The position numbers and the translations under genes are program-made. From a virus (lineage: Duplodnaviria; Heunggongvirae; Uroviricota; Caudoviricetes), in IMG/VR virus record IMGVR_UViG_2565956627_000012: DNA of 13,451 nt. One strand, written 5' to 3'. Shown here in pieces: positions 1-13,451 of the stretch (positions within the stretch are counted from its first letter, which is position 1; the number at the start of each line of letters is the position of its first letter). Below the pieces are notes generated by a model, which ran no database searches, was not told the origin of the DNA, and saw only the letters and a list, made by a program, of their open reading frames with translations.

Positions 1-1239
1 ATGAGCAGGGCAATTCATAGACTTAGCGACACTCTTTTACGAAAATTAAGCGGATCACCAACCACAAAAAGCACCTTTTTTAATGATGGTGGCAATCTTA
101 GCGTAAGGCATTCAATCAATGGCCTGTTAACCTGGTATTTCACTTACAGGGCCGGAACTGGTAGGCAGATATCACCGGAACGTCTGAGGCTGGGCAATTA
201 TCCCGATCTGAGCCTGAAAGCTGCCAGGGAAAAAGCGGCACAGTGTCGCGCCTGGCTGGCTGAGGGGAAAAATCCGCGCTATGAACTTAATCATGCTGTA
301 CAGGACGCGTTAGCCCCCGTGACGGTTAAGGAAGCGCTCACTTACTGGCTTGAATCGTACGCAAAGGAAAAGCGCACTGACTACGAATCACTGAAAAGCC
401 GGATCAATAAACACATAATTAGCCAGATTGGCGCTATGCCACTGGAAAAATGCGAGCTACGCCACTGGCTGGCCTGTTTTGACCAGCTTGCTAAGCGTAA
501 TCCGGTATCAGCCGGATTTTTGCTACAGGTATGCAAACAGGCGCTTAAGTACTGCCGAAAACGACGATACGCAATCAGCAACGTTCTTGATGATATGGTC
601 GTAGGTGATGTGGGGAAAAAAGCAGAAATAAGTGAGCGTGTACTGACAAACAAAGAGCTTGGAGAACTACTCCGCGCACTGGATGAAAAAATCTTCCCGC
701 CGTACTACAGCGCCCTAATTCGCCTCCTGATTGTTTTTGGATGCCGTACCACTGAGCTAAGGCGCTCTGAGGTGCAGGAGTGGGATTTTAAGGAAATGCT
801 CTGGACAGTACCGAAGGAGCACAGCAAAACGAAGGTCGCCATATTCAGACCAATACCGGAAAGCATTCTGCCGTTCGTCACGCAGCTGGTGGAGAAGAAC
901 AGGCACACGGGCTTATTGCTTGGAGAACTGAAAGGGCAATCATCCGTAGCAGAGTACGGAAGAACAGCGCACAGACGAATTAATCAAGCCCCCTGGACGT
1001 TACACGATATCCGGCACACATTTACAACCATGCTGAACGATTTAGGCGTGGATCCGCATATTGTCGAGCAGCTTACAGCCCACCAGATGCCAGGGATGCA
1101 ACGCGTCTATAACCACTCCCGTTATCTTGATGCAAAACGTGATGCTCTTAATCTATGGGTAGACCGTCTCGAGCTTCTCCAGAACAATGATGAAAAAGTC
1201 GTTGTTATGACCCCACGAATTTACACCCAAAATTCTTGA
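1..1239 (+). CDS. int: Tyrosine recombinase / site-specific integrase (P4-type)
   Basis: 412-aa ORF starting with ATG at base 1. The C-terminal catalytic region carries the tyrosine-recombinase signature: conserved Arg in 'GCRTTELRRSE', the HxxR box 'LHDIRHTF', and a candidate nucleophile Tyr in 'RVYNHSRYLD'. The N-terminal arm resembles P4-like integrases. Confidence 0.9.
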   Translation: MSRAIHRLSDTLLRKLSGSPTTKSTFFNDGGNLSVRHSINGLLTWYFTYRAGTGRQISPERLRLGNYPDLSLKAAREKAAQCRAWLAEGKNPRYELNHAVQDALAPVTVKEALTYWLESYAKEKRTDYESLKSRINKHIISQIGAMPLEKCELRHWLACFDQLAKRNPVSAGFLLQVCKQALKYCRKRRYAISNVLDDMVVGDVGKKAEISERVLTNKELGELLRALDEKIFPPYYSALIRLLIVFGCRTTELRRSEVQEWDFKEMLWTVPKEHSKTKVAIFRPIPESILPFVTQLVEKNRHTGLLLGELKGQSSVAEYGRTAHRRINQAPWTLHDIRHTFTTMLNDLGVDPHIVEQLTAHQMPGMQRVYNHSRYLDAKRDALNLWVDRLELLQNNDEKVVVMTPRIYTQNS

Positions 1240-1648: not shown

Positions 1649-1858
1649 ATGCGTGAAATAAATGAAGATCGCGTAATCCGTGAGGATGAATGTCGTAAGT
1701 TAACTGGAGTGTGTCGCACTACACGCTACGAACTGGAGAAAAAAGGATGCTTTCCGTCACGTCTTAATCTGGGCGGTCGTTCTGTTGGTTGGCTGCTGTC
1801 CGAGGTTATGGAATGGGTTAAAAGCCGGGATCGCATTAATTCAGGTAAGGCAGCGTAA
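1649..1858 (+). CDS. alpA: AlpA-family (prophage CP4-57 regulatory protein-like) helix-turn-helix transcriptional regulator
   Basis: 69 aa counted from the internal ATG at 1649, with AGG 8 nt upstream; the longer ORF begins with GTG at 1562. The motif 'LTGVCRTTRYELEKKGCFPSRLNLGGRSVGWLLSEVMEWV' matches the AlpA/MerR-like HTH pattern (GGR-x-VGW...E...W), as recalled from family knowledge. Confidence 0.8.
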   Translation: MREINEDRVIREDECRKLTGVCRTTRYELEKKGCFPSRLNLGGRSVGWLLSEVMEWVKSRDRINSGKAA

Positions 1859-3003: not shown

Positions 3004-3303
3004 ATGAAAAATAAAAATTCTGGCGTTACTGCCAGCGGCCCCGCTCGTCCTGAATTTATGAACGGCGATATTTACCGCGATAAATATGGCGGCATGGTAA
3101 CGATTAAAGGCGTGGCAGAACGGCGCATCACCTACCGCCGTGAAGGCTACGAATATGATTGCGTGATGCCTGTTTATCAGTTTCGGCGTGATTTTTCTCT
3201 GGTACAGGCAGCGCCCCGCAGTAAACCAACCAGCAGGGAGAAAGCACGCGCCAATATTCAGGAAATAAAAAAGATGCTTAACGTATTCAGGGGTAAAAAA
3301 TGA
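3004..3303 (+). CDS. Hypothetical protein (99 aa) immediately upstream of, and coupled to, the primase gene
   Basis: ATG at 3004 follows the upstream stop by 5 nt. Its stop overlaps the primase start (ATGA at 3300). Basic C-terminus. Confidence 0.5.
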   Translation: MKNKNSGVTASGPARPEFMNGDIYRDKYGGMVTIKGVAERRITYRREGYEYDCVMPVYQFRRDFSLVQAAPRSKPTSREKARANIQEIKKMLNVFRGKK

Positions 3304-5048
3304 AACTGGCACCGAACGTAAAAAAACAGCCACGCGGAATAAAACACAAAGACACAGAGGTAATTATTTTCGCGGGTAGTGATGCCTGGTCGCACGCGAA
3401 ACAATGGCAGGAGCAGGATGGCCCCGCATCCGGCGATAATGTGCCGCCTGTGTGGCTTGGGCCAAATCAGCTTGCCGAACTTGATGCGCTGAAAATTGTT
3501 CCGGATGGGAAAAAACGCGTAAGGCTGTACCAGGCCGGAGAACTGGATTTAGTGGAGACCAAAAAGATCGGTCAGAAGCTGGCGGCGGCAGATATTCAGG
3601 ATGCGAATTTTTACCCCGAAGGGGTGCACGGACAGAAATGTGAGAACTGGCGGCGCTATCTGAATGCTGAGCGTGAAAATATTGCCGCAGGGATCACCAT
3701 GCCGGAACAGAAAAAATCACAACTTTCACAGATGGCAGACAGTGAACGGGCACAGCTTCTTGCTTCCCGCTTTGATGGTGTCTGCGTCCATGCAGAAAGT
3801 GAAATCGTTCACGTATGGCGTGACGGGGTATGGTGTCCGGTCAGCACAATGGAACTGAGCCGCGAAATGGTGGCGGTTTATTCAGAACACGGGGCCACGT
3901 TCAGCAAGCGTGCAATTAATAACGCCGTTGAAGCGTTAAAAGTTATTGCTCAGCCAATGGGGGAGCCGTCCGGTGATTTGCTGCCGTTTGCCAATGGTGC
4001 GCTTGACCTGAGAACAGGGGAATTTTCCTCTCACCAGCCGGATAACTGGATCACCACACACAACGGCATTGAGTACACGCCGCCAGTACCAGGTGAGAAT
4101 ATCCGCGACAACGCGCCAAACTTTCATAAATGGCTTGATCACGCTGCCGGAAAAGACCCGGGCAAGATGATGCGCATATGTGCCGCGCTATACATGATTA
4201 TGGCGAACCGGTACGACTGGCAGATGTTTATTGAGGCCACCGGAGACGGCGGGAGCGGCAAGAGCACTTTCACGCACATAGCCAGCCTTCTGGCAGGGAA
4301 ACAGAACACCGTAAGCGCTGAGATGACATCACTCGATGATGCTGGTGGGCGTGCGCAGGTTGTCGGAAGTCGGCTTATTGTCCTGGCAGACCAGCCGAAA
4401 TATACAGGCGAAGGCACGGGCATCAAGAAAATCACGGGCGGCGACCCTGTGGAGATTAACCCGAAATATGAAAAGCGATTCACGACCATAATCAGGGCTG
4501 TGGTACTGGCGACCAACAACAACCCGATGATATTCACGGAACGGGCCGGAGGCGTGTCACGTCGTCGCGTGATTTTCCGTTTCGACAATATCGTCAGTGA
4601 GGCCGAAAAAGACAGAGAACTACCGGAAAAAATCGCGGCTGAAATCCCCGTCATTATCCGCCGCTTGCTGGCGAACTTTGCCAATCCTGAAAAGGCACGG
4701 GCTTTACTGATTGAGCAGCGTGACGGTGATGAAGCACTGGCAATAAAGCAACAGACGGATCCGGTTATTGAATTTTGCCAGTTCCTTAACTTTCTGGAAG
4801 AAGCACGCGGCCTGATGATGGGCGGCGGCGGTGACTCTTCCAGGTACACGACCAGAAACAGCCTTTACCGCGTCTATCTGGCGTTTATGGCGTATGTCGG
4901 CAGGAACAAGCCGCTGAACGTGGCTGAGTTCAGCAAAGCTATGAAGCCAGCGGCGAAAGTTTACGGACATGAATATATAACGCGCAGGATTAAAGGGATT
5001 ACGCAAACCAACGTGACAACAACAGACGACTGCGACGCGTTTTTATAA
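3300..5048 (+). CDS. Replication protein: primase / SF3-type helicase (phage-plasmid primase, P4-family-like C-terminal domain)
   Basis: 582 aa. Walker A P-loop 'GDGGSGKST' lies in the central/C-terminal part, and a Walker B-like 'RLIVLADQ' follows. Size and position (after alpA, before an iteron array) match satellite replication-initiator (Pri-Rep) genes. Confidence 0.85.
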   Translation: MKLAPNVKKQPRGIKHKDTEVIIFAGSDAWSHAKQWQEQDGPASGDNVPPVWLGPNQLAELDALKIVPDGKKRVRLYQAGELDLVETKKIGQKLAAADIQDANFYPEGVHGQKCENWRRYLNAERENIAAGITMPEQKKSQLSQMADSERAQLLASRFDGVCVHAESEIVHVWRDGVWCPVSTMELSREMVAVYSEHGATFSKRAINNAVEALKVIAQPMGEPSGDLLPFANGALDLRTGEFSSHQPDNWITTHNGIEYTPPVPGENIRDNAPNFHKWLDHAAGKDPGKMMRICAALYMIMANRYDWQMFIEATGDGGSGKSTFTHIASLLAGKQNTVSAEMTSLDDAGGRAQVVGSRLIVLADQPKYTGEGTGIKKITGGDPVEINPKYEKRFTTIIRAVVLATNNNPMIFTERAGGVSRRRVIFRFDNIVSEAEKDRELPEKIAAEIPVIIRRLLANFANPEKARALLIEQRDGDEALAIKQQTDPVIEFCQFLNFLEEARGLMMGGGGDSSRYTTRNSLYRVYLAFMAYVGRNKPLNVAEFSKAMKPAAKVYGHEYITRRIKGITQTNVTTTDDCDAFL

Positions 5049-5334: not shown

Positions 5335-5592
5335 ATGCACACTACAGAAAAACTTAACAATCAGAAGAAACCACACTACCGCGCTATTGACCTTACAGAG
5401 CACTGGCTGAGAGTGGCGATAAAAATCATCGACCGCAACACGGGGGAAGGATATGCGAAAGCACATCCTGAACTAATAAGCGCATTCATGACCACAGCGG
5501 CGGCAAACTTTGCCACGCTGACAGAACGGGAGATTGCCGAAGCGGAACAGGTAACAACCATCAACGTTAAAACCGGAGAGGTGGAATCATGA
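5335..5592 (+). CDS. Hypothetical protein (85 aa)
   Basis: ATG at 5335 with GAGGG upstream. Its stop overlaps the SSB-like start (ATGA). No recognisable motif. Confidence 0.5.
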   Translation: MHTTEKLNNQKKPHYRAIDLTEHWLRVAIKIIDRNTGEGYAKAHPELISAFMTTAAANFATLTEREIAEAEQVTTINVKTGEVES

Positions 5593-5999
5593 CAGCACAG
5601 ATAGCCGCTTACGGGCGGCTGGTGGCTGACCCGCAGTTAAAGACCACCAGCAAGGGCACACAAATGGCTATGGCAAGCATGGCGGTCCCCCTGCCGTGCA
5701 ATCAGGCAGATGACGGACAGGCGACGATGTGGTTATCCGTCCTGGCGTTTGGCAGACAGGCCGACGCACTGGCAAAACACCACAAAGGCGAGCTGGTGAG
5801 CGTGGCGGGTAACATGCAGGTAAGCCAGTGGACAGGCCAGAACGGCGAAACGCGGCAGGGCTGGCAGGTTATTGCAGACAGCGTAATCAGTGCCAGAACG
5901 GCGCGACCTGGTGGGAGCCGACGCAAGACCACAGGCACACAGGGTAATCAGCCACCAGCGGGAGGCGATGACCCTTACGGTGATGATATTCCGTTCTGA
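5589..5999 (+). CDS. ssb: Single-stranded DNA-binding protein (short SSB-like, OB-fold with acidic C-terminal tip)
   Basis: 136 aa. The N-terminus 'IAAYGRLVADPQLKTT...MAMASMAV' parallels the SSB OB-fold start. A Gly/Pro-rich linker 'RPGGSRRKTTGTQGNQPPAGG' is followed by the hallmark SSB tail 'DDPYGDDIPF' at the extreme C-terminus. Confidence 0.7.
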   Translation: MTAQIAAYGRLVADPQLKTTSKGTQMAMASMAVPLPCNQADDGQATMWLSVLAFGRQADALAKHHKGELVSVAGNMQVSQWTGQNGETRQGWQVIADSVISARTARPGGSRRKTTGTQGNQPPAGGDDPYGDDIPF

Positions 6000-6009
6000 G
6001 AGGGTGACG

Positions 6010-6267
6010 ATGGTACATGACCGCATAGCGGAAGAACTCGAGGCGAAAGGCTTTTACCGGAGAGCGTCGGCGCGATGGGGTGAAGTCATGCTACTGGTGG
6101 AGACAGACAAGGAACGGGAGCACATCACGATGCGACGGCTGGAATGTTGCAGAAAATCGACAAGGCCAGCACTCGGGCCGGACAATTTCAGCGATATTAA
6201 AAAAGCCGCTGATCGTGTTTATGCTGAAATGGGATTAGATAAATTAAAGGGGGAAACATGCCAGTAA
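6010..6267 (+). CDS. Small regulator-like protein, possibly PerC-family transcriptional activator
   Basis: 85 aa from the ATG at 6010, with GAGAGGG upstream. 'IAEELEAKGFYRRASARWGEVM...DKEREHITMRRLEC' resembles, from memory, the conserved core of PerC/Pch-like prophage regulators. Not verified by search. Confidence 0.4.
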   Translation: MVHDRIAEELEAKGFYRRASARWGEVMLLVETDKEREHITMRRLECCRKSTRPALGPDNFSDIKKAADRVYAEMGLDKLKGETCQ

Positions 6268-6521: not shown

Positions 6522-6552
6522 CCCAGCCCTGGTTTAACCAGGGCTTTTTTTG
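6522..6552 (+). terminator. Rho-independent terminator closing the replication/early operon
   Basis: Stem AGCCCTGG (6525-6532), loop TTTAA, stem CCAGGGCT (6538-6545), then a run of T at 6546-6551. Confidence 0.65.
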
Positions 6553-6575
6553 TCAGCTTTTGTAAATTATTTGTG

Positions 6576-6595
6576 CGTGGTTGTTCGTGGTTGTT
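6576..6595. repeat. Tandem direct repeat, 2 x CGTGGTTGTT
   Basis: Two perfect adjacent 10-bp copies in the leader upstream of the capsid gene. Confidence 0.3.
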
Positions 6596-6673
6596 CAGCG
6601 GCATGGCTGGCTTATTTTATCAGGCCCGAACCGTGGTTATTCTCGCCACTGTTGCCAGGACGCTGGGACCATT

Positions 6674-6712: not shown

Positions 6713-6801
6713 GCCTGCATCGGTGTGCATTTCTTTTTGTTCTCGTACCGTGAGTCTTGCCGCGTCCTGGTGTTTTCCTCTTTGCATCAGGACTTTTTTT
6801 T

Positions 6802-7974
6802 ATGCCGAGAATTATCGAATTGCGCCAGCAGAAAACCGCCATCAAAAATCAGATGCGCGACATGCTGGAGAACGCGGAAAAAGAAAACCGCAGCCTTAAC
6901 GACGCCGAGGGCGCAAAATTTGACGAATTACGCGCTAAAGCTGAATCCCTCGATAAAGACATTTCCCGCCTTGAAGCCGTTGCCGACGAAGAGCGCAGCA
7001 AGCCAGGTAAAGCCAGCCAGACCACTGACCCCGCAGAACTTCGCAACTACATCGTAACGGGTGACGTTCGCTCATTATCCACCACCACCAACGGCGGCAA
7101 GGACGGTGGTTATACCGTTATCCCTGAGCTTGATCGCGAGGTTATGCGGTTACTGAGTGATGAAAGCGTCATGCGAATGATTGCGACCGTGAAAACGGCG
7201 AAATCAAACGAATATCAGAAACTGGTTTCCACAGGTGGCGCGGCTGTAAATTATGGAACCGAGGGCAGCAAGCGTAACGAAACCAACACCCCGAAAGTTG
7301 AGCGCGTAAGCATCAAACTTAACCCGATCTATGCCTACCCGAAAACCACACAGGAAATTCTGGATTTTTCAGAGGTGGACGTACTGGGCTGGTTATCGTC
7401 TGAAATCGCCGATACGTTCGCCACGACCGAAGAAGATGATTTTGTAAATGGTAATGGTACTGGCAAGCCGAAAGGTTTCCTGAGTTACAACCGAGATCTA
7501 ACCAACGACAAAACCCGCGCCTTTGGCACCATTGAAAAAATGGTAGCAGCAGCCGAAGCCGCCATTACAGCGGACGAACTGATCGACATCCTCTACAAGC
7601 TGAAAGCGAAATACCGTAAGAACGCCGTATGGGTGATGAACTCGAGCACAGCGGCAGCATTGCAGAAGCTGAAAAACCAGATCGGTGATTACGTATGGCG
7701 TGACAGCCTCAAAGAGGGCGCACCTGACACATTGCTGGGCCGTCCTGTTTATTACCTGGAAAGTATGCCGGACATCGGCAAAGGCAAAACGCCGCTGGCT
7801 GTCGGTGACTTTAAGCGCGGTTATTTCATCGTTGACCATGAAACGGGTATTCGTACCCGACCGGACAACATTACAGAGCCGGGTTTCTACAAGGTACACA
7901 CGGACAAATACATCGGCGGCGGGGTTGTTGACTCCCGCGCGATAAAAGTCCTCGAGATGAAAAACGGCGGTTAA
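6802..7974 (+). CDS. Major capsid protein, HK97 family, with N-terminal coiled-coil delta (scaffold-like) domain
   Basis: 390 aa from the ATG at 6802; the six-frame ORF starts at an upstream TTG. The N-terminal roughly 100 aa is charged and helical (delta-domain-like). The remainder has HK97-fold MCP character. No separate scaffold gene is present, consistent with HK97-type assembly. Confidence 0.85.
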   Translation: MPRIIELRQQKTAIKNQMRDMLENAEKENRSLNDAEGAKFDELRAKAESLDKDISRLEAVADEERSKPGKASQTTDPAELRNYIVTGDVRSLSTTTNGGKDGGYTVIPELDREVMRLLSDESVMRMIATVKTAKSNEYQKLVSTGGAAVNYGTEGSKRNETNTPKVERVSIKLNPIYAYPKTTQEILDFSEVDVLGWLSSEIADTFATTEEDDFVNGNGTGKPKGFLSYNRDLTNDKTRAFGTIEKMVAAAEAAITADELIDILYKLKAKYRKNAVWVMNSSTAAALQKLKNQIGDYVWRDSLKEGAPDTLLGRPVYYLESMPDIGKGKTPLAVGDFKRGYFIVDHETGIRTRPDNITEPGFYKVHTDKYIGGGVVDSRAIKVLEMKNGG

Positions 7975-7982
7975 CAGAAAAA

Positions 7983-8009
7983 GGGGCTAAAAAGCCCCTT
8001 TGGTGTTTT
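7983..8009 (+). terminator. Putative intrinsic terminator/attenuator between capsid and protease genes
   Basis: GGGGCT-AAAA-AGCCCC hairpin at 7983-7998 followed by the T-rich TTTGGTGTTTT. The 6-bp stem is short, so termination is probably partial. Confidence 0.45.
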
Positions 8010-8585
8010 ATGGGTGAAAAAAATATGAAAAAGAGCATGGAAATCCGGTCATCAGAAATCACCACCAGCGGAGCCAGTACGCTGACGGGTTACGTTGTTC
8101 GCTGGAATAACCTTTCTGATCTGCTATGGGGTGAGTTTTACGAAAAATTCCAGCGGGGGGCGTTCAGTGAGTGGCTGGCGGCGGGTAATGACGTTCGCGG
8201 CCTGTATGAGCACGACCACAGCATGTTACTGGGGCGTACCCGTTCCGGTACGCTGAAACTGGAAGAGGATGAAACAGGGTTACGCTTTGAACTGACCCCA
8301 CCGGATACCAGTACAGGGCGGGACGTTATCGAACTGGTTAAGCGTGGTGATATCTCGGGGATGAGCTTTGGCTTTCGTTCCCGTAAGGATGTATGGGATA
8401 CCACAACAGATCCATGCGTGCGCACCGTGCTGGTGGCGGAACTGTACGAAATTACCGTTACATCCGTACCGGCTTACCCTGATTCCGGCGTGGATCTGGC
8501 CCGCCGTTCCCTGTATGAGCAGCACCCCGAAAAAATGCCACGCGCGGATAATCGCCGCTGGTGGGCGGATTTAGCGGGGGTGTGA
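8010..8585 (+). CDS. Prohead maturation protease (HK97 family, peptidase S78/U35-like)
   Basis: 191 aa. A candidate catalytic His lies in 'LYEHDHS' and a candidate Ser in 'DISGMSFGF'. An alternative start ATG at 8025 has a better-spaced GGTGA. Its stop is followed 2 nt later by the portal start. Confidence 0.85.
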   Translation: MGEKNMKKSMEIRSSEITTSGASTLTGYVVRWNNLSDLLWGEFYEKFQRGAFSEWLAAGNDVRGLYEHDHSMLLGRTRSGTLKLEEDETGLRFELTPPDTSTGRDVIELVKRGDISGMSFGFRSRKDVWDTTTDPCVRTVLVAELYEITVTSVPAYPDSGVDLARRSLYEQHPEKMPRADNRRWWADLAGV

Positions 8586-8586
8586 T

Positions 8587-9801
8587 ATGTGGCCTTTCAG
8601 ACGAAAACAAGAGCATCGCAGCATGACGCTGGATGAATTTATGGCGCTGGCTGGCACATCGAACACGGGGGCGGGTGAGTACGTATCATCGGGGACAGCG
8701 GAATCACTCCCCGCCGTCATGAACGCCGTCACGGTCATCTCTGAGGCGGTGGCTACTATGCCATGCTACCTGTACCTGGTACGCAATGAGAAGGGGAAGG
8801 AGGCCCGCGAGTGGCTTGATTCTCATCCGGTCGATCATATCCTCAACGAGCGCCCGAACGCGTGGCAGACGCCCTATCAGTTTAAGCGAATGATGGTCCG
8901 CCACTGCCTGTTAAACGGTAATGCTTATGCGGTGATTCAGTGGGGGCGTGATGGTTTTCCGGTGGCTTTGCACCCTTACCCGCCGCAGTCGGTGAATGTT
9001 GAGCAGACAGGGGAACATAACTGGCGTTACCGCATCACTGACGCTTACAGCGGAAACACCCGCAACTATTTACCGTGGGAGGTTCTCCACCTTCGTTACT
9101 CCACGGATGACGGCTTTATGGGGCGCTCACCTGTGACCATCTGCCGCGAATCGCTGGGGCTTGGGCTGGCCCAACAGCGCCACGGCGCGAGCGTGATGCG
9201 TGATGGCATGATGGCAGCAGGGGTTATCACGTCAGGCGAATGGCTGGACGGCGTGAAGGGCAAACAGGCATTAGCCGCACTGGAACGCTACAAAGGAGCC
9301 AGAAACGCCGGAAAAACGCCCATTCTTGAAGGGGGTATGAGCTATCAGCGGCTTGGCATGAGTAACCAGGATGCTGAATGGCTGGCCTCCCGTCGCTTCA
9401 CCATTGAAGACATCGCCCGAATGTTCAACGTCTCGCCGATTTTTCTGCAGGAATACAGCAACAGCACCTACAGCAATTTCAGCGAGGCAAGCCGCGCATT
9501 TCTCACCATGACGATGCGCCCGTGGCTGGCGAACTTTGAGCAGCAGATAAAAAATGCTTTGCTGGTGGCCTCGCCTGTACCTGGTATCCGGTATCAGGTG
9601 GAGTTTGACAGCGCGGACCTGTTACGGGCCACACCTGGCGAACGCTTTGCCACCTATGAACGCGGCATCAAGTCCGGCGTTATGTGCCCGAACGAAGCCC
9701 GCGAACGTGAGGGATTATCGCCGCGTGATGGTGGCGATGAGTTCAGCCAGGCCTGGAAACAGGAGATCGAAGTAAAGGATGATAAAGAGGGCAAATCATG
9801 A
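8587..9801 (+). CDS. Portal protein (HK97-family-like)
   Basis: 404 aa. Size, position and sequence character fit a portal (for example 'FTIEDIARMFNVSPIFLQEYSNSTYSNFSEASRAFLTMTMRPW'). The stop overlaps the next start. Confidence 0.8.
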   Translation: MWPFRRKQEHRSMTLDEFMALAGTSNTGAGEYVSSGTAESLPAVMNAVTVISEAVATMPCYLYLVRNEKGKEAREWLDSHPVDHILNERPNAWQTPYQFKRMMVRHCLLNGNAYAVIQWGRDGFPVALHPYPPQSVNVEQTGEHNWRYRITDAYSGNTRNYLPWEVLHLRYSTDDGFMGRSPVTICRESLGLGLAQQRHGASVMRDGMMAAGVITSGEWLDGVKGKQALAALERYKGARNAGKTPILEGGMSYQRLGMSNQDAEWLASRRFTIEDIARMFNVSPIFLQEYSNSTYSNFSEASRAFLTMTMRPWLANFEQQIKNALLVASPVPGIRYQVEFDSADLLRATPGERFATYERGIKSGVMCPNEAREREGLSPRDGGDEFSQAWKQEIEVKDDKEGKS

Positions 9802-10136
9802 GAGCGGGGAGCATGAGGGATCGCATTGTCATCATGAGCGCGAAACTTTCCCGCCTCCCTTCCGGTGCAATGAAAAGCACATGGGAGGATGTTGCCACCG
9901 TATGGGCGGAGGTGAAAGGGATCAGCGGACGGGAACGCATGACCGCAGGTGCAGAAACGGCACAGGCAACCGTAAGAGTCTGGATCCGTTTTCGTGTGGA
10001 TGTTACGGCATCCAGCCGGATACGGGTACTCACGGGGGCTTATTCCGGCAATGAGCTTGATATTGTTGGCCCCCCCGTTCCCGACGGTAAAAGGACTCGT
10101 CTGGAAATTCTTTGTAAAACAGGTGCGCCACGATGA
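9798..10136 (+). CDS. Head-tail adaptor / head closure protein (Phage_H_T_join-like)
   Basis: 112 aa. Pattern 'DRIVI...W.DVATVWAEVKGISGRE...A....ATVRVWIRFRVDVT...RI......LDIV......G.RTRLEILC' matches the head-tail joining family as recalled. Start is translationally coupled (ATGA overlap). Confidence 0.65.
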   Translation: MRAGSMRDRIVIMSAKLSRLPSGAMKSTWEDVATVWAEVKGISGRERMTAGAETAQATVRVWIRFRVDVTASSRIRVLTGAYSGNELDIVGPPVPDGKRTRLEILCKTGAPR

Positions 10137-10429
10137 CAGCAGAATTAATCACCCTGGAAGAAGTGAAACTCCATTGCCGCATTGATGGCAATGAGGAAGA
10201 CCAGTTAATCAGCGGATACATCGCCGCCGCGCTTGAGGTGTGCCAGAAACACATCGGCAGGCGCTTTGATGACGGGCTGGAGTTCACGCCAGCCATAAAG
10301 ATTGGCTGCATGATGTACGTGTCGCAACTGTACGAATACAGGGCCACGGTCGGGGATGGAGACACAAAAGAAATCCCGCTGGCTGTAGGGATGCTCTGGT
10401 CGGTTTATCGTGATGTGGGGGTGTACTGA
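10133..10429 (+). CDS. gp6-like head-tail connector protein
   Basis: 98 aa. The N-terminal 'ITLEEVKLHCRIDGNEEDQLISGYIAAALEVCQ' matches the gp6-like connector family pattern (L.E.K.H.R.D...ED.LI...I.AA). Overlapping start/stop with both neighbours. Confidence 0.7.
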   Translation: MTAELITLEEVKLHCRIDGNEEDQLISGYIAAALEVCQKHIGRRFDDGLEFTPAIKIGCMMYVSQLYEYRATVGDGDTKEIPLAVGMLWSVYRDVGVY

Positions 10430-10869
10430 TGCCGTGGCAACCATTAAGACGATGCACAGAACCAGGCTGTAACAGGCGCGTTAAATCCGGCAAGTGTGAG
10501 GAGCACAGGCGGGCGGCATGGCGTGCAGAGGATGCCAGACGAGGACACCGCCGCGCGCGTGGGTACTCCAGACAGTGGGACAAATACCGCGCCATGTATC
10601 TGAGTAAAAATCCGTTATGCGTGCGATGCCTTGAGAAGGGGATATATACGCCCGCCGTGGTGGTGGATCACATTATCCCGATTAATGGCGGTGATGATGT
10701 TCTCTTCTGGCCCGAATGGAACCATCAACCATTGTGTCAGGCGTGTCATAACCAGAAAACGAAATGGCTTGATCCGGCAACAAAAAGCAAGCGTGCCGCA
10801 GGTGGATTTCGTGAAGAGGAAGAACGGGCCGCTAACCGCAATAACTGGATGTATGACGCTGATGAATGA
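10429..10869 (+). CDS. HNH endonuclease (terminase-associated, cos-phage type)
   Basis: 146 aa. An N-terminal Cys cluster 'CTEPGCNRRVKSGKCEEH' is followed by the HNH core 'VDHIIPINGGDD...NHQPLCQACHNQKT'. It sits directly upstream of the terminase genes, as in HK97-like cos phages. Confidence 0.85.
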   Translation: MPWQPLRRCTEPGCNRRVKSGKCEEHRRAAWRAEDARRGHRRARGYSRQWDKYRAMYLSKNPLCVRCLEKGIYTPAVVVDHIIPINGGDDVLFWPEWNHQPLCQACHNQKTKWLDPATKSKRAAGGFREEEERAANRNNWMYDADE

Positions 10870-11035
10870 GCGGGAACAAAACCGCCTTATCCGTGGACTT
10901 ATAAGGCAGCGTGACGCATGGAAGACACAGGAAACAGGGCATAAAGATAAAGCGTCAGGACGCGCAGAACGCATCACAGCGAAGCGATTAACCGACCGTG
11001 ACCGCGAGGTTATGGAATGTTTCCGCAATCGCTGA
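10862..11035 (+). CDS. Possible small basic ORF (57 aa) between HNH and terS; uncertain
   Basis: ATG at 10862 overlaps the HNH 3' end. The product is Arg/Lys-rich ('MNEREQNRLIRGLIRQRDAWK...'). No convincing RBS. It is the only candidate filling the 290-bp gap. Confidence 0.25.
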   Translation: MNEREQNRLIRGLIRQRDAWKTQETGHKDKASGRAERITAKRLTDRDREVMECFRNR

Positions 11036-11044
11036 TGAGGCTGT

Positions 11045-11075
11045 ATGACGGGGTGGGGGGGGCGTTTTCAGGACA
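11045..11075. other. Putative cos (cohesive-end) region
   Basis: G-rich block ACGGGGTGGGGGGGGCGTTTTC (11048-11069) in the HNH-terS gap. It resembles lambdoid cosN-proximal sequence (ACGGGGCGGCGACCTCGCGGGTTTTCGC) as recalled. Location is typical for cos in HNH-dependent packaging systems. Confidence 0.3.
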
Positions 11076-11159
11076 AACCCGACCCCGCCGGGCACCGAAC
11101 GCCTCCTCAAATTTTTATGCACGGGAATTTTTTGAAAAATAATCTGACGAAAAATAAGC

Positions 11160-11516
11160 ATGGCAAGACCACCGAAAGCCCCCGCCTACCTGGATGATAT
11201 CGCCGTGAAGCAGTGGCGGGAAAAATCGCGGCAGCTTGCGGAACGGGGAGACCTGACCCCCGCCGACTGGAGCAATCTGGAACTGTATTGCGTCAACTAC
11301 TCCATTTACCGGAAAGCCGTTGCAGACCTTGCGGCGCGCGGGTTCAGCATTGTTAACAGTCAGGGCGGCGAGAGCAGAAACCCCGCATTAAGCGCAAAAT
11401 CCGACGCTGAAAGAGTGATGATAAAAATGGCCTCCTTGCTCGGTTTTGACCCGATAAGCCGCCGTAAAAATCCACCGGAAACAGAAGAAGAGGACGAGCT
11501 TGACCGCCTGGAATAA
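11160..11516 (+). CDS. terS: Terminase small subunit (P27 family-like)
   Basis: 118 aa. The pattern 'W.NLELYCVNYSIYRKAVADLAARGFSI...G..RNPA....SDAERVMIKMASLLGFDPISRRK' matches the P27-family TerS signature as recalled. It lies directly upstream of terL and overlaps it. Confidence 0.8.
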   Translation: MARPPKAPAYLDDIAVKQWREKSRQLAERGDLTPADWSNLELYCVNYSIYRKAVADLAARGFSIVNSQGGESRNPALSAKSDAERVMIKMASLLGFDPISRRKNPPETEEEDELDRLE

Positions 11517-13161
11517 GTACGCAGAAGACGTAAAAACGGGCAAAATTCCGGCCTGTAAACGGTTAAAACAGGCTGTTAAACGGTACTTTTCGGACCTTAA
11601 AAGCCCCCTTTACACGTTCGATCGTGAGGTTGTGGAGCGGTTTATTGCCTTTTCCAGGGTGTGCCCGCACGTAAAAGGACCGATGCGTGGCAGACCCATT
11701 GAGCTGGAGCCGTGGCAGCAGTTCGCCTTTGCGTGCATCCTCGGCTTTAAGGTTAAGGCCACCGGACGGCGCAAATACACGAGCGCCTTTATCGAAGTGC
11801 CGCGCAAAAATGCGAAATCCACGACCGCCGCGATTCTGGCTAACTGGTTTCTGATTATGGAGAACGGTCAGCAGGATATCTACACCGCAGCGGTGAGCCG
11901 TGACCAGGCGCGGATCGTCTTTGATGATGCGCGTCAGATGTGCCTTTTATCCCGACCGTTACGCAGGCGGGTGAATATTCAGGCGCATAAGGTGATACAC
12001 CCGAAAACCAACAGCCTGTTAAAGCCACTGGCAGCAAAAGCGGCAACCATTGAGGGGACAAACCCGAGTCTTGCCATTGTGGATGAATATCACCTGCACC
12101 CAGACAACGGGGTTTATTCCGCACTTGATATGGGGATGGGCGCACGTCCCGAAGGGCTGTTATTTGCCATTACCACATCGGGCAGTAACGTCGTTTCAGC
12201 CTGTAAGCAGCACTATGATTATTGCTGCCAGATCCTGGACGGCGAAGAGGTCAACGATTCAATTTTTGTACTGATTTACGAACTGGACGACGAAAACGAG
12301 GTTGATGATCCGGCGATGTGGATAAAGGCTAACCCTAACATCGATGTTTCCGTCGATCGTGAAAAACTGGCCTCAACCATCCAGAAAGCGCGGGGTATTC
12401 CGTCGCAATGGGTGGAAATGCTCACCAAGCGATTCAATATCTGGTGTCAGGGGGCTACGCCGTGGATGGGTAACGGTGCATGGGCGGAGTGTGCCGGAAC
12501 GTTCGCGGAGGCGGATTTATACGGGCAGGAGTGCTACGCGGGGCTGGACTTATCATCAACCAGCGATATTTCCAGCGTGTGCTATGCCTTCCCGGTCGGT
12601 AAAAAGATTATGCTGGTTTCCCGTCACTATCTGCCGGAATTTCAGCTACAGAATCCCGCCAATAAAAACCGCGCCATCTATCGCCAGTGGGTAAAGGCGG
12701 GCTGGATACGCACAACACCGGGTGACTGCATTGATTATGACCGTATCCGTGATGACATCATGGCGGATGCAGAGAATTTCAATATCAGGCTGGTGGGCTT
12801 CGATACATGGAACGCCACGCACCTGAGGACGCAGTTACAGGGCGCAGGATTTGAGGTGGAGCCGTTCCCGCAAACCTACCTCAGATTCAGTCCGGCGGCG
12901 AAATCGTTCGAAGTTTTTGTTAACCGGAAGGTGATTGTGCATCGTGGTGATCCGGTGCTGGCCTGGTCAATGAGTAATGTTGTGATGCAGAGTGACGCGA
13001 ACGCCAATATCAAGCCGAACAAGAAAAAATCATCCAACAAGATAGACCCGAGCGTTGCGGCGCTGATGGCGTTTGGCACATTCCAGGCAGAGCACGAGGA
13101 CTTTGCATTCGATATGAGCGACAGCCACAAAGAGCGGCTTGCGGCGTTTGATGGGGTATGA
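11500..13161 (+). CDS. terL: Terminase large subunit (Terminase_1-like ATPase plus nuclease)
   Basis: 553 aa. Conserved N-terminal block 'WNKYAEDVKTGKIPACKRLKQAVKRYFSDL...YTFD'. A P-loop-like 'VPRKNAKSTTAA' and Walker B-like 'LAIVDEYHL' are present. The apparent start is TTG at 11500, with GAGGA 5 nt upstream, overlapping the terS 3' end. Confidence 0.9.
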   Translation: MTAWNKYAEDVKTGKIPACKRLKQAVKRYFSDLKSPLYTFDREVVERFIAFSRVCPHVKGPMRGRPIELEPWQQFAFACILGFKVKATGRRKYTSAFIEVPRKNAKSTTAAILANWFLIMENGQQDIYTAAVSRDQARIVFDDARQMCLLSRPLRRRVNIQAHKVIHPKTNSLLKPLAAKAATIEGTNPSLAIVDEYHLHPDNGVYSALDMGMGARPEGLLFAITTSGSNVVSACKQHYDYCCQILDGEEVNDSIFVLIYELDDENEVDDPAMWIKANPNIDVSVDREKLASTIQKARGIPSQWVEMLTKRFNIWCQGATPWMGNGAWAECAGTFAEADLYGQECYAGLDLSSTSDISSVCYAFPVGKKIMLVSRHYLPEFQLQNPANKNRAIYRQWVKAGWIRTTPGDCIDYDRIRDDIMADAENFNIRLVGFDTWNATHLRTQLQGAGFEVEPFPQTYLRFSPAAKSFEVFVNRKVIVHRGDPVLAWSMSNVVMQSDANANIKPNKKKSSNKIDPSVAALMAFGTFQAEHEDFAFDMSDSHKERLAAFDGV

Positions 13162-13451
13162 CGAGAATGAGCGAAACCGAACTACTAAAAATAATCCGCC
13201 GTGTTACCGGAGCCAGCCAGACAGCAGACAAACAGGAGGCCACGCAGCCGGACAGCGTGATAGCCGAAAATTACGCGCGTGTGGTGGCTGAGGTGATGCG
13301 CCGTGACGGTATTGAGCTTAACGGCGTGGATATGCGCAACATACGAACCAGAGTCCTTGAGTTGCTGGCATACCGTCGCCGTTCTCAACAACGGAGGGAG
13401 AGCGCGAAAAATACTTATCAGTGGAAGAAGCCGGAACGGTTGCGGCGGTAA
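13158..13451 (+). CDS. Hypothetical protein (97 aa) translationally coupled to terL
   Basis: ATG at 13158 overlaps the terL stop (ATGA); an alternative ATG lies at 13167. The stop TAA is the last three bases of the window. Basic C-terminus; no recognisable motif. Confidence 0.45.
   Translation: MTRMSETELLKIIRRVTGASQTADKQEATQPDSVIAENYARVVAEVMRRDGIELNGVDMRNIRTRVLELLAYRRRSQQRRESAKNTYQWKKPERLRR

Follow-up and report, generated by a model that had tools for sequence, protein, structure and literature searches.

The stretch of DNA analysed here, 13,451 nucleotides from IMG/VR virus record IMGVR_UViG_2565956627_000012 (referred to as the window), carries at positions 6802-13161 a module of nine plus-strand genes for head formation and DNA packaging. 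We describe this module and the element that contains it, which is very probably a capsid-forming phage-inducible chromosomal island (cf-PICI). Genes were assigned by Pfam with curated cut-offs and by PHROGs, and all genes of the module pass. The module opens with the gene for the major capsid protein (MCP) and closes with terL (Table 1). An initial annotation, made from the letters alone, had given these coordinates, from the MCP at 6802 to the terL stop, and had named eight genes. All eight assignments are confirmed by the listing of open reading frames (ORFs) and by both databases; the domain search identifies the product of the ORF at 6802 as an MCP. A ninth gene, the 60-aa ORF overlapping the end of the HNH gene, had been missed. 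The ATG of the MCP gene lies in frame with a longer, TTG-initiated ORF that begins at 6757.

Table 1. Features of the window, in order of position
Feature	Position	Strand	Evidence and remarks
Tyrosine integrase with arm-binding domain	1-1239	+	Pfam Phage_integrase, Arm-DNA-bind_3; left island end; 77% identical to EcCIEDL933 Int
AlpA-family regulator	1649-1858	+	Pfam Phage_AlpA, E=1e-15; gene call in contig L257, 69 aa
D5-type primase/helicase, replication module	3300-5048	+	Pfam D5_N, DUF5906, Pox_D5
SSB	5589-5999	+	Pfam SSB; 82% identical to EcCIEDL933 SSB
PerC-like regulator, directly upstream of the module	6010-6267	+	PF06069 on the gene called in L257; PHROG transcriptional activator families; 74% identical to EcCIEDL933 PerC
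Terminator-like hairpin and T-run, closing the upstream gene block	6525-6545	+	
Upstream control region of the head operon	6558-6642	+	Conserved TTTTGTAAATTATTTGT at 6558-6575; tandem GTGGTTGTTC x2 at 6577-6596; one-mismatch copy at 6633-6642
MCP, HK97 fold, N-terminal delta domain	6802-7974	+	Phage_capsid PF05065, E=3e-70
GC-rich hairpin directly after the MCP stop	7980-8001	+	AAAGGGGCT-loop-AGCCCCTTT; candidate attenuator or RNA-stabilising element
Prohead serine protease (S78)	8010-8585	+	Peptidase_S78, 1e-47
Portal	8587-9801	+	Phage_portal, 3e-91
Head closure Hc1 ("adaptor" in cf-PICI papers)	9798-10136	+	Phage_HCP, 1.5e-23; phrog_25 Hc1
gp6-like head-tail adaptor Ad1 ("connector" in cf-PICI papers)	10133-10429	+	Phage_connect_1, 1.7e-10; phrog_40 Ad1
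HNH endonuclease, packaging cofactor of terminase	10429-10869	+	Pfam HNH, 1.8e-8
60-aa ORF, ninth module gene, overlaps HNH end	10853-11035	+	phrog_3173
cos-like non-coding region between 60-aa ORF and terS	11036-11159	+	124 nt
TerS, P27/Terminase_4 family	11160-11516	+	Terminase_4, 1.3e-23
TerL, TTG start, overlaps terS by 17 nt	11500-13161	+	TerL_ATPase and TerL_nuclease; stop at 13161
97-aa ORF coupled to the terL stop, last island gene	13158-13451	+	phrog_1561; 73% identical to last EcCIEDL933 gene

Genes of the module are tightly packed. Overlaps of 1 to 17 nt were found at six of nine junctions (portal/Hc1 -4, Hc1/Ad1 -4, Ad1/HNH -1, HNH/small ORF -17, terS/terL -17 and terL/next ORF -4), protease and portal genes are separated by a single nucleotide (+1), and the only real gaps are those behind the MCP gene (MCP/protease, +35) and in front of terS (small ORF/terS, +124). 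Overlap of most genes, pointed out in the initial annotation, is thus real, but it is not distinctive, being equally common in HK97.

To place the module order, 160 related loci were collected: 80 genome loci from Enterobacterales, Pasteurellaceae and Orbaceae, and 80 IMG/VR contigs, most of them 14-18 kb long. The 60-aa ORF was detected in 74 of these 160 relatives. The scan of IMG/VR with the MCP alignment yielded only close relatives of satellite size and no distant phages. A scan with the MCP of phage SfIV returned 80 near-identical copies of one phage, which amount to a single data point; six annotated phages from different hosts were used for comparison instead. Analysis revealed that the order MCP-protease-portal-(Hc1)-Ad1-HNH-(small ORF)-terS-terL is present in 160 of 160 related loci, wherever the contig is long enough, and that no alternative arrangement occurs. 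Since it recurs without exception, this order is not a chance arrangement. In contrast, all six phages with related MCPs have terS-terL-portal-protease-MCP. These are HK97 and phages SfIV, YeP3, ST101-KPC2phi6.3, vB_CB2a and Javan499, the latter five from Shigella, Yersinia, Klebsiella, Burkholderia and Streptococcus hosts.

Comparison with HK97 specifies the rearrangement. The HK97 order is HNH, cos, terS-terL-portal-protease-MCP-Ad1-Hc1 and tail genes, whereas in the window HNH comes after the head genes, whose two sub-blocks each run in reverse (MCP-protease-portal as well as Hc1-Ad1). The claim that the module departs from the order of HK97-like phages therefore stands against all six, with the addition of the Hc1-Ad1 swap relative to HK97, which had gone unnoticed. 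HK97 and similar temperate phages (Hendrixvirinae, with HNH-dependent cos packaging) have the MCP, protease, portal, Ad1, Hc1, HNH and TerL families in common with the window. Identity to HK97 is 26% for portal, 27% for TerL, 39% for HNH (versus gp74) and 56% for Hc1 (versus gp7); HK97 MCP gave no blastp match to the window MCP at E<=1e-3. Tail, lysis and immunity genes, present in HK97-like phages, are all absent from the window, and the HK97 genome of 39.7 kb compares with an island of ~14.5 kb.

The permuted order is already known. Capsid-protease-portal-head connectors followed by hnh-terS-terL is the conserved organisation of proteobacterial cf-PICIs (Alqurainy et al. 2022, 10.1101/2022.09.08.507074), and its detection in the window is a correct rediscovery of this published hallmark. 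Firmicutes cf-PICIs have other orders, with either portal-protease-capsid or HNH-terS-terL coming first (10.1101/2022.09.08.507074). Furthermore, a conventional lambdoid prophage of E. coli EDL933 (contig L003, 24210-32566) is organised as HNH-terS-terL-MCP-portal-connector-closure, where a 646-aa gene annotated as MCP precedes portal, so MCP before portal is not by itself specific to satellites. On account of these two observations, it is the arrangement as a whole that makes up the signature, which is lineage-specific. The proposal of the initial annotation that the order is diagnostic of a satellite can accordingly be kept for this one lineage, on the strength of the 160 relatives and the published organisation, but does not extend to Firmicutes cf-PICIs.

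In the phage collection, MCPs more than 59% identical to that of the window were found in four records only, and all ordinary phages remain below 43%. Two of the four are of satellite size, Escherichia phage vB_KppS-Ant (LR881103.1, 16.5 kb) and Pasteurella phage Pmp8 (OR544139.1, 15.3 kb), and are filed as phages and not as satellites. Their module order is that of the window, and their MCPs are 71% and 59.5% identical to the window MCP, respectively; accessory genes and hosts differ. With this satellite order and without a convincing tail module, both are, or contain, cf-PICIs. The 106-kb "Klebsiella phage P12620-1" ends in a cf-PICI-like MCP-protease-portal block (PQ569648.1, 93271-106503); this record may be a chimeric assembly.

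Outside the module, too, the window has the make-up of an integrated island. It covers 13,451 bp from the start codon of int to the stop codon of the last gene, and is 100% identical to positions 3200-16650 of an E. coli contig (L257, NCBI assembly GCA_012770715.1). In this native contig the island is located between cspD and clpS, and both flanks contain chromosomal genes only. Candidate att cores, ATGATAGTTAT(T/C)TATCA, were found at L257 3017-3034 and 17476-17493, with arm-like repeats at both ends; they would delimit an island of ~14.5 kb. A second match to an E. coli chromosome, 95% identical over the full length, lies between uvrB and bioD in strain ZH063 (contig L001). Together with roxA/phoQ in EDL933, relatives thus occupy three integration contexts, each with chromosomal genes as flanks. 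Int, alpA, the replication module, ssb and the perC-like gene occur upstream of the module. The mechanical ORF of alpA begins earlier than the gene called in the native contig, at a GTG at 1562. DUF4222 is also encoded outside the packaging module. None of the plus-strand ORFs scanned in the window matched tail, lysis or defence families (Pfam and PHROGs, with PADLOC on unassigned ORFs), and an Rfam scan of the window detected no known RNA family.

The closest characterised element is EcCIEDL933, the prototype cf-PICI, of E. coli O157:H7 EDL933 (NZ_CP008957.1, 1680329-1694760; contig L006, 6330-20761), inserted between roxA and phoQ. All 20 ORFs of the window, from int to the last one, have EcCIEDL933 homologues in the same order (41-100% identity, blastp). 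The synteny comparison called for in the initial annotation thus separates the module from the six phages and unites it with a known satellite. The cos-like gap, the hairpin behind the MCP gene and TTGTTC repeats upstream of it are found in EcCIEDL933 too. Differences concern the primase (D5_N/DUF5906, 582 aa, in the window; DUF927, 710 aa, in EcCIEDL933), the region downstream of alpA and the integration site. Each of the nine module genes of EcCIEDL933 is needed for transfer, while helper capsid and terminase genes are dispensable and only helper tails are required (10.1101/2022.09.08.507074). Among them, loss of "hypothetical gene 1792" severely impairs transfer (10.1101/2022.09.08.507074). 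The 60-aa ORF is probably the counterpart of this gene, judging from consecutive numbering in which the MCP is gene 1786.

Similarity to EcCIEDL933 is very uneven within the module. HNH (99.3%), the small ORF (100%) and TerS (100%) are nearly identical, TerL (95%), protease (95%) and portal (96.5%) are close, whereas MCP (69.5%), Hc1 (51%) and Ad1 (74%) are far more diverged than these 95-100% identical neighbours. The module is thus a mosaic. Window MCP matches PDB entry 9gyi at E=4e-173; this structure is the EcCIEDL933 MCP, because its chain has D257, K290, D295, E319 and R345, the exact residues mutated in the EcCIEDL933 capsid study. Hc1 is nearer to phage proteins (up to 64% identity to those of E. 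coli phages phi467 and Evi, and 56% to HK97 gp7) than to EcCIEDL933 Hc1; for Ad1, no close phage relative was found. Adaptor and connector genes set tail specificity and are exchanged to match different tails (10.1101/2025.02.11.637232), a view with which the divergence of Hc1 and Ad1 agrees. HK106 is the helper that supplies tails to EcCIEDL933, and the divergent Hc1 and Ad1 sequences suggest a tail donor other than HK106 for the island in the window.

The larger of the two gaps in the module, the cos-like region, contains three blocks: a G-run, CGGGGTGGGGGGGG, at 11049-11062, GCCTCCTCAAATTTTTATGCACGGG at 11101-11125 and ATTTTTTGAAAAATAA at 11127-11142. They are 90-99% conserved over 126 distinct relatives, which exceeds conservation of the flanking coding DNA. 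In HK97, the cos layout comprises a G-run, 42 nt to the genome end and an A/T-rich stretch of 49 nt to the terS ATG, in total 91 nt versus 98 nt in the window. By analogy, cos would be cut near 11095-11115. No mapped cf-PICI cos site was found in the literature searched. The initial annotation had rightly located a cos-like region internally between HNH and terS, where the conserved non-coding stretch lies, but had derived this position from the permuted order. The same HNH-cos-terS adjacency exists in HK97, at the ends of the virion genome and internally in the prophage; it is inherited from phages and not produced by permutation. In HK97-type phages, too, the late transcript crosses cos.

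Taken as a whole, we consider the window to be a cf-PICI of the proteobacterial EcCIEDL933 family, with 6802-13161 as its nine-gene packaging module, at a probability of about 95%. Every feature by which cf-PICIs are operationally defined in a 2025 preprint (10.1101/2025.02.11.637232) is present. The size of 13,451 bp (~14.5 kb between putative att cores) falls within the range of ~10-18 kb, and integrase, alpA regulation and replication module were all detected by Pfam. In the SatelliteFinder model, a cfPICI has 11 core components, and elements that contain tail or holin genes are left out; all 11 components occur in the window, which corresponds to "Type A".

Alternatively, the window might be a decayed HK97-like prophage, a remnant and not a functional satellite, from which the genes for tail, lysis and immunity have disappeared and whose order was changed by deletions. 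Its head and packaging proteins do belong to HK97-type families, with Hc1 as much as 56% identical to HK97 gp7, and related records have been deposited as "phages". Nevertheless, all ORFs are intact and tightly packed, and random decay would not leave 160 loci, from three bacterial orders, with matching content, order and size. The left half of the window is a module of PICI type (int-alpA-primase), unlike the region for immunity and replication of lambdoid phages. MCPs of true phages are less than 43% identical to that of the window, and the EcCIEDL933 prototype is functional. With tail, lysis and immunity modules absent and a gene order unlike that of HK97 and five other phages, the window does not qualify as an HK97-like phage or prophage, and we regard decay as very unlikely. 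Still less credible is a domesticated head module similar to gene-transfer agents (GTAs), packaging random host DNA for the benefit of the cell. The second-best solved structure for the MCP is the capsid protein of the Rhodobacter capsulatus GTA (E=5e-51), and tail genes are lacking in the window; on the other hand, the element has its own integrase, regulator, primase and conserved cos-like site. Integrase, replication functions and a specific packaging site are foreign to RcGTA-like agents, which are fixed at one chromosomal locus. Relatives occupy different chromosomal sites in different strains (three integration sites altogether) and are therefore mobile. RcGTA itself is no more than a distant relative, with its genes in phage order.

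Finally, head genes might be accessory or interference factors in a classical PICI or a P4-like satellite that remodels helper capsids. Classical Gram-negative PICIs of the EcCICFT073 type share int, alpA, a primase-type replication module, a PerC-like gene and AlpA-dependent induction by helpers, and the int-alpA-primase left half is common to classical E. coli PICIs. They differ in having no portal, adaptor, connector or terL and in using helper capsids and terminase, whereas the window encodes its own. Portal, Hc1, Ad1 and TerL are "forbidden" in the SatelliteFinder model of PICIs, being the defining extras of cf-PICIs; the presence of the first three is enough to take the window out of the classical model. 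As helper capsid mutants leave transfer of the prototype unaffected, this explanation appears hardly tenable.

Several points weigh against assignment of the window to cf-PICIs. For this island, use of a helper, capsid formation and the DNA ends are predicted from its genes and from the prototype. Capsid size and tail preference are extrapolated from the prototype, since MCP (70%) and Hc1 (51%) differ markedly from their EcCIEDL933 counterparts. The putative cos cleavage site is placed by analogy with HK97. As another candidate for this site, the ends of the vB_KppS-Ant record were considered as physical cos ends. They map to about position 11075 of the window, but when they are joined, ~70 bp from the best-conserved portion of the gap is missing; this candidate was therefore rejected as unreliable.

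We further examined sequences that might govern expression of the cf-PICI head operon. On regulation, where the initial annotation had supposed a distinct logic, the published evidence is limited to the need for alpA in induction and transfer, as was found for EcCIEDL933 (10.1101/2022.09.08.507074). The phased 10-bp TTGTTC-type repeat of the upstream control region is also present just outside both island ends, where it adjoins a tandem GGTGTAGTTAAT x2 motif. These end repeats are seen in ZH063 (L001 3911-3984 and 18611-18685), in the native contig (L257 3110-3176 and 17347-17403) and in EcCIEDL933, where phased repeats are located at L006 7623-7651, 13884-13910 and ~21470-21520. The int-alpA spacer of EcCIEDL933, with the autoregulated alpA promoter region, contains a nearly identical inverted copy of the phased repeat, whereas the int-alpA spacer of the window is without it. 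Of 73 phased TTGTTC matches on the plus strand in 146 distinct relatives, 32 are located within 250 nt upstream of the MCP gene; the majority of the others lie near island ends. A generalised test for phased 6-mers gave 34% across relatives versus 5-14% in controls; the signal is weak beyond the subfamily of the window, with few exact recurrences at island ends. Scans for sigma-70 promoters and terminators detected no more sites than in shuffled sequence, and no promoter reached threshold upstream of the MCP gene.

Besides activating its own promoter, AlpA triggers excision and replication, and it is related to the excisionases Vis (of P4) and Xis; it is for these reasons a plausible binder of the TTGTTC repeats. 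The repeats may tentatively be viewed as candidate sites for AlpA or a recombination directionality factor, in which case one helper-induced protein would drive both excision at att and activation of the head operon. The same reading holds that, with the MCP gene placed first and followed by a conserved hairpin, expression would step down from the capsid protein, needed in hundreds of copies per particle, to portal and terminase, needed in few. We would give this joint reading, drawn from sequence motifs, clearly less than even odds. No description of AlpA acting on capsid-upstream repeats was found in the literature searched. The hairpin behind the MCP gene occurs in 93% of 108 distinct relatives; its stem is retained, whereas its loop varies. 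At the equivalent position in HK97, a putative terminator is annotated. The hairpin could grade expression between the capsid protein and low-copy components.

Based on EcCIEDL933, the following life cycle may be envisaged. A helper phage would switch on alpA of the island, as was shown for the prototype, and the island would then be excised and replicated by its own integrase and D5-type primase. Transcription of the head operon would begin upstream of 6802. MCP, S78 protease and portal would build small procapsids; the EcCIEDL933 capsid has T=4 symmetry and is 47.5 nm across. HNH, TerS and TerL, probably joined by the 60-aa protein, would recognise and cut the island's own cos within 11036-11159, so that unit-length DNA of ~14.5 kb is packaged. 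Hc1 and Ad1 would eventually close the head and form a docking surface for tails of the helper phage.

Two regions outside the module deserve mention. Downstream of alpA, the window contains a 302-aa ORF (1870-2778). Over its C-terminal 90 residues it matches PHROG "transcriptional repressor" families, in its N-terminal part a 247-aa hypothetical protein of EcCIEDL933, and over part of its length an Icd-like protein. ZH063 and several near-identical islands (L255, L256, L258 and L260) have this stretch in split or pseudogenised form, and the region downstream of alpA, to which it corresponds, has been noted as variable (10.1101/2025.02.11.637232). Past the right end of the window, ~825 bp without called gene (L257 16651-17475) extend from the last gene to the putative attR core. 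Hairpin-forming repeats of the CCTCAATTTGAGGAGG type are present there in several copies and are found in the corresponding EcCIEDL933 region as well; Rfam found nothing in the ~825 bp.

Cf-PICIs are widespread satellites and have been reported in about 13% of Enterobacteriaceae genomes (SatelliteFinder source). They move DNA between strains, and even species, via tail-less capsids that accept tails from different phages (10.1101/2025.02.11.637232). Correct recognition of such an element avoids its annotation as a defective prophage or, as in several database records, as a phage, and for the proteobacterial cf-PICI lineage, gene order serves as an inexpensive and reliable classifier. New material added here is modest: conserved cos blocks, a hairpin behind the MCP gene, and repeats common to att sites and the region upstream of the head operon. 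It provides specific, testable targets for locating the site where island DNA is cut for packaging and for learning how the capsid operon is switched on. If true, recognition of the repeats by AlpA would be a concrete form of the regulatory logic guessed at in the initial annotation.

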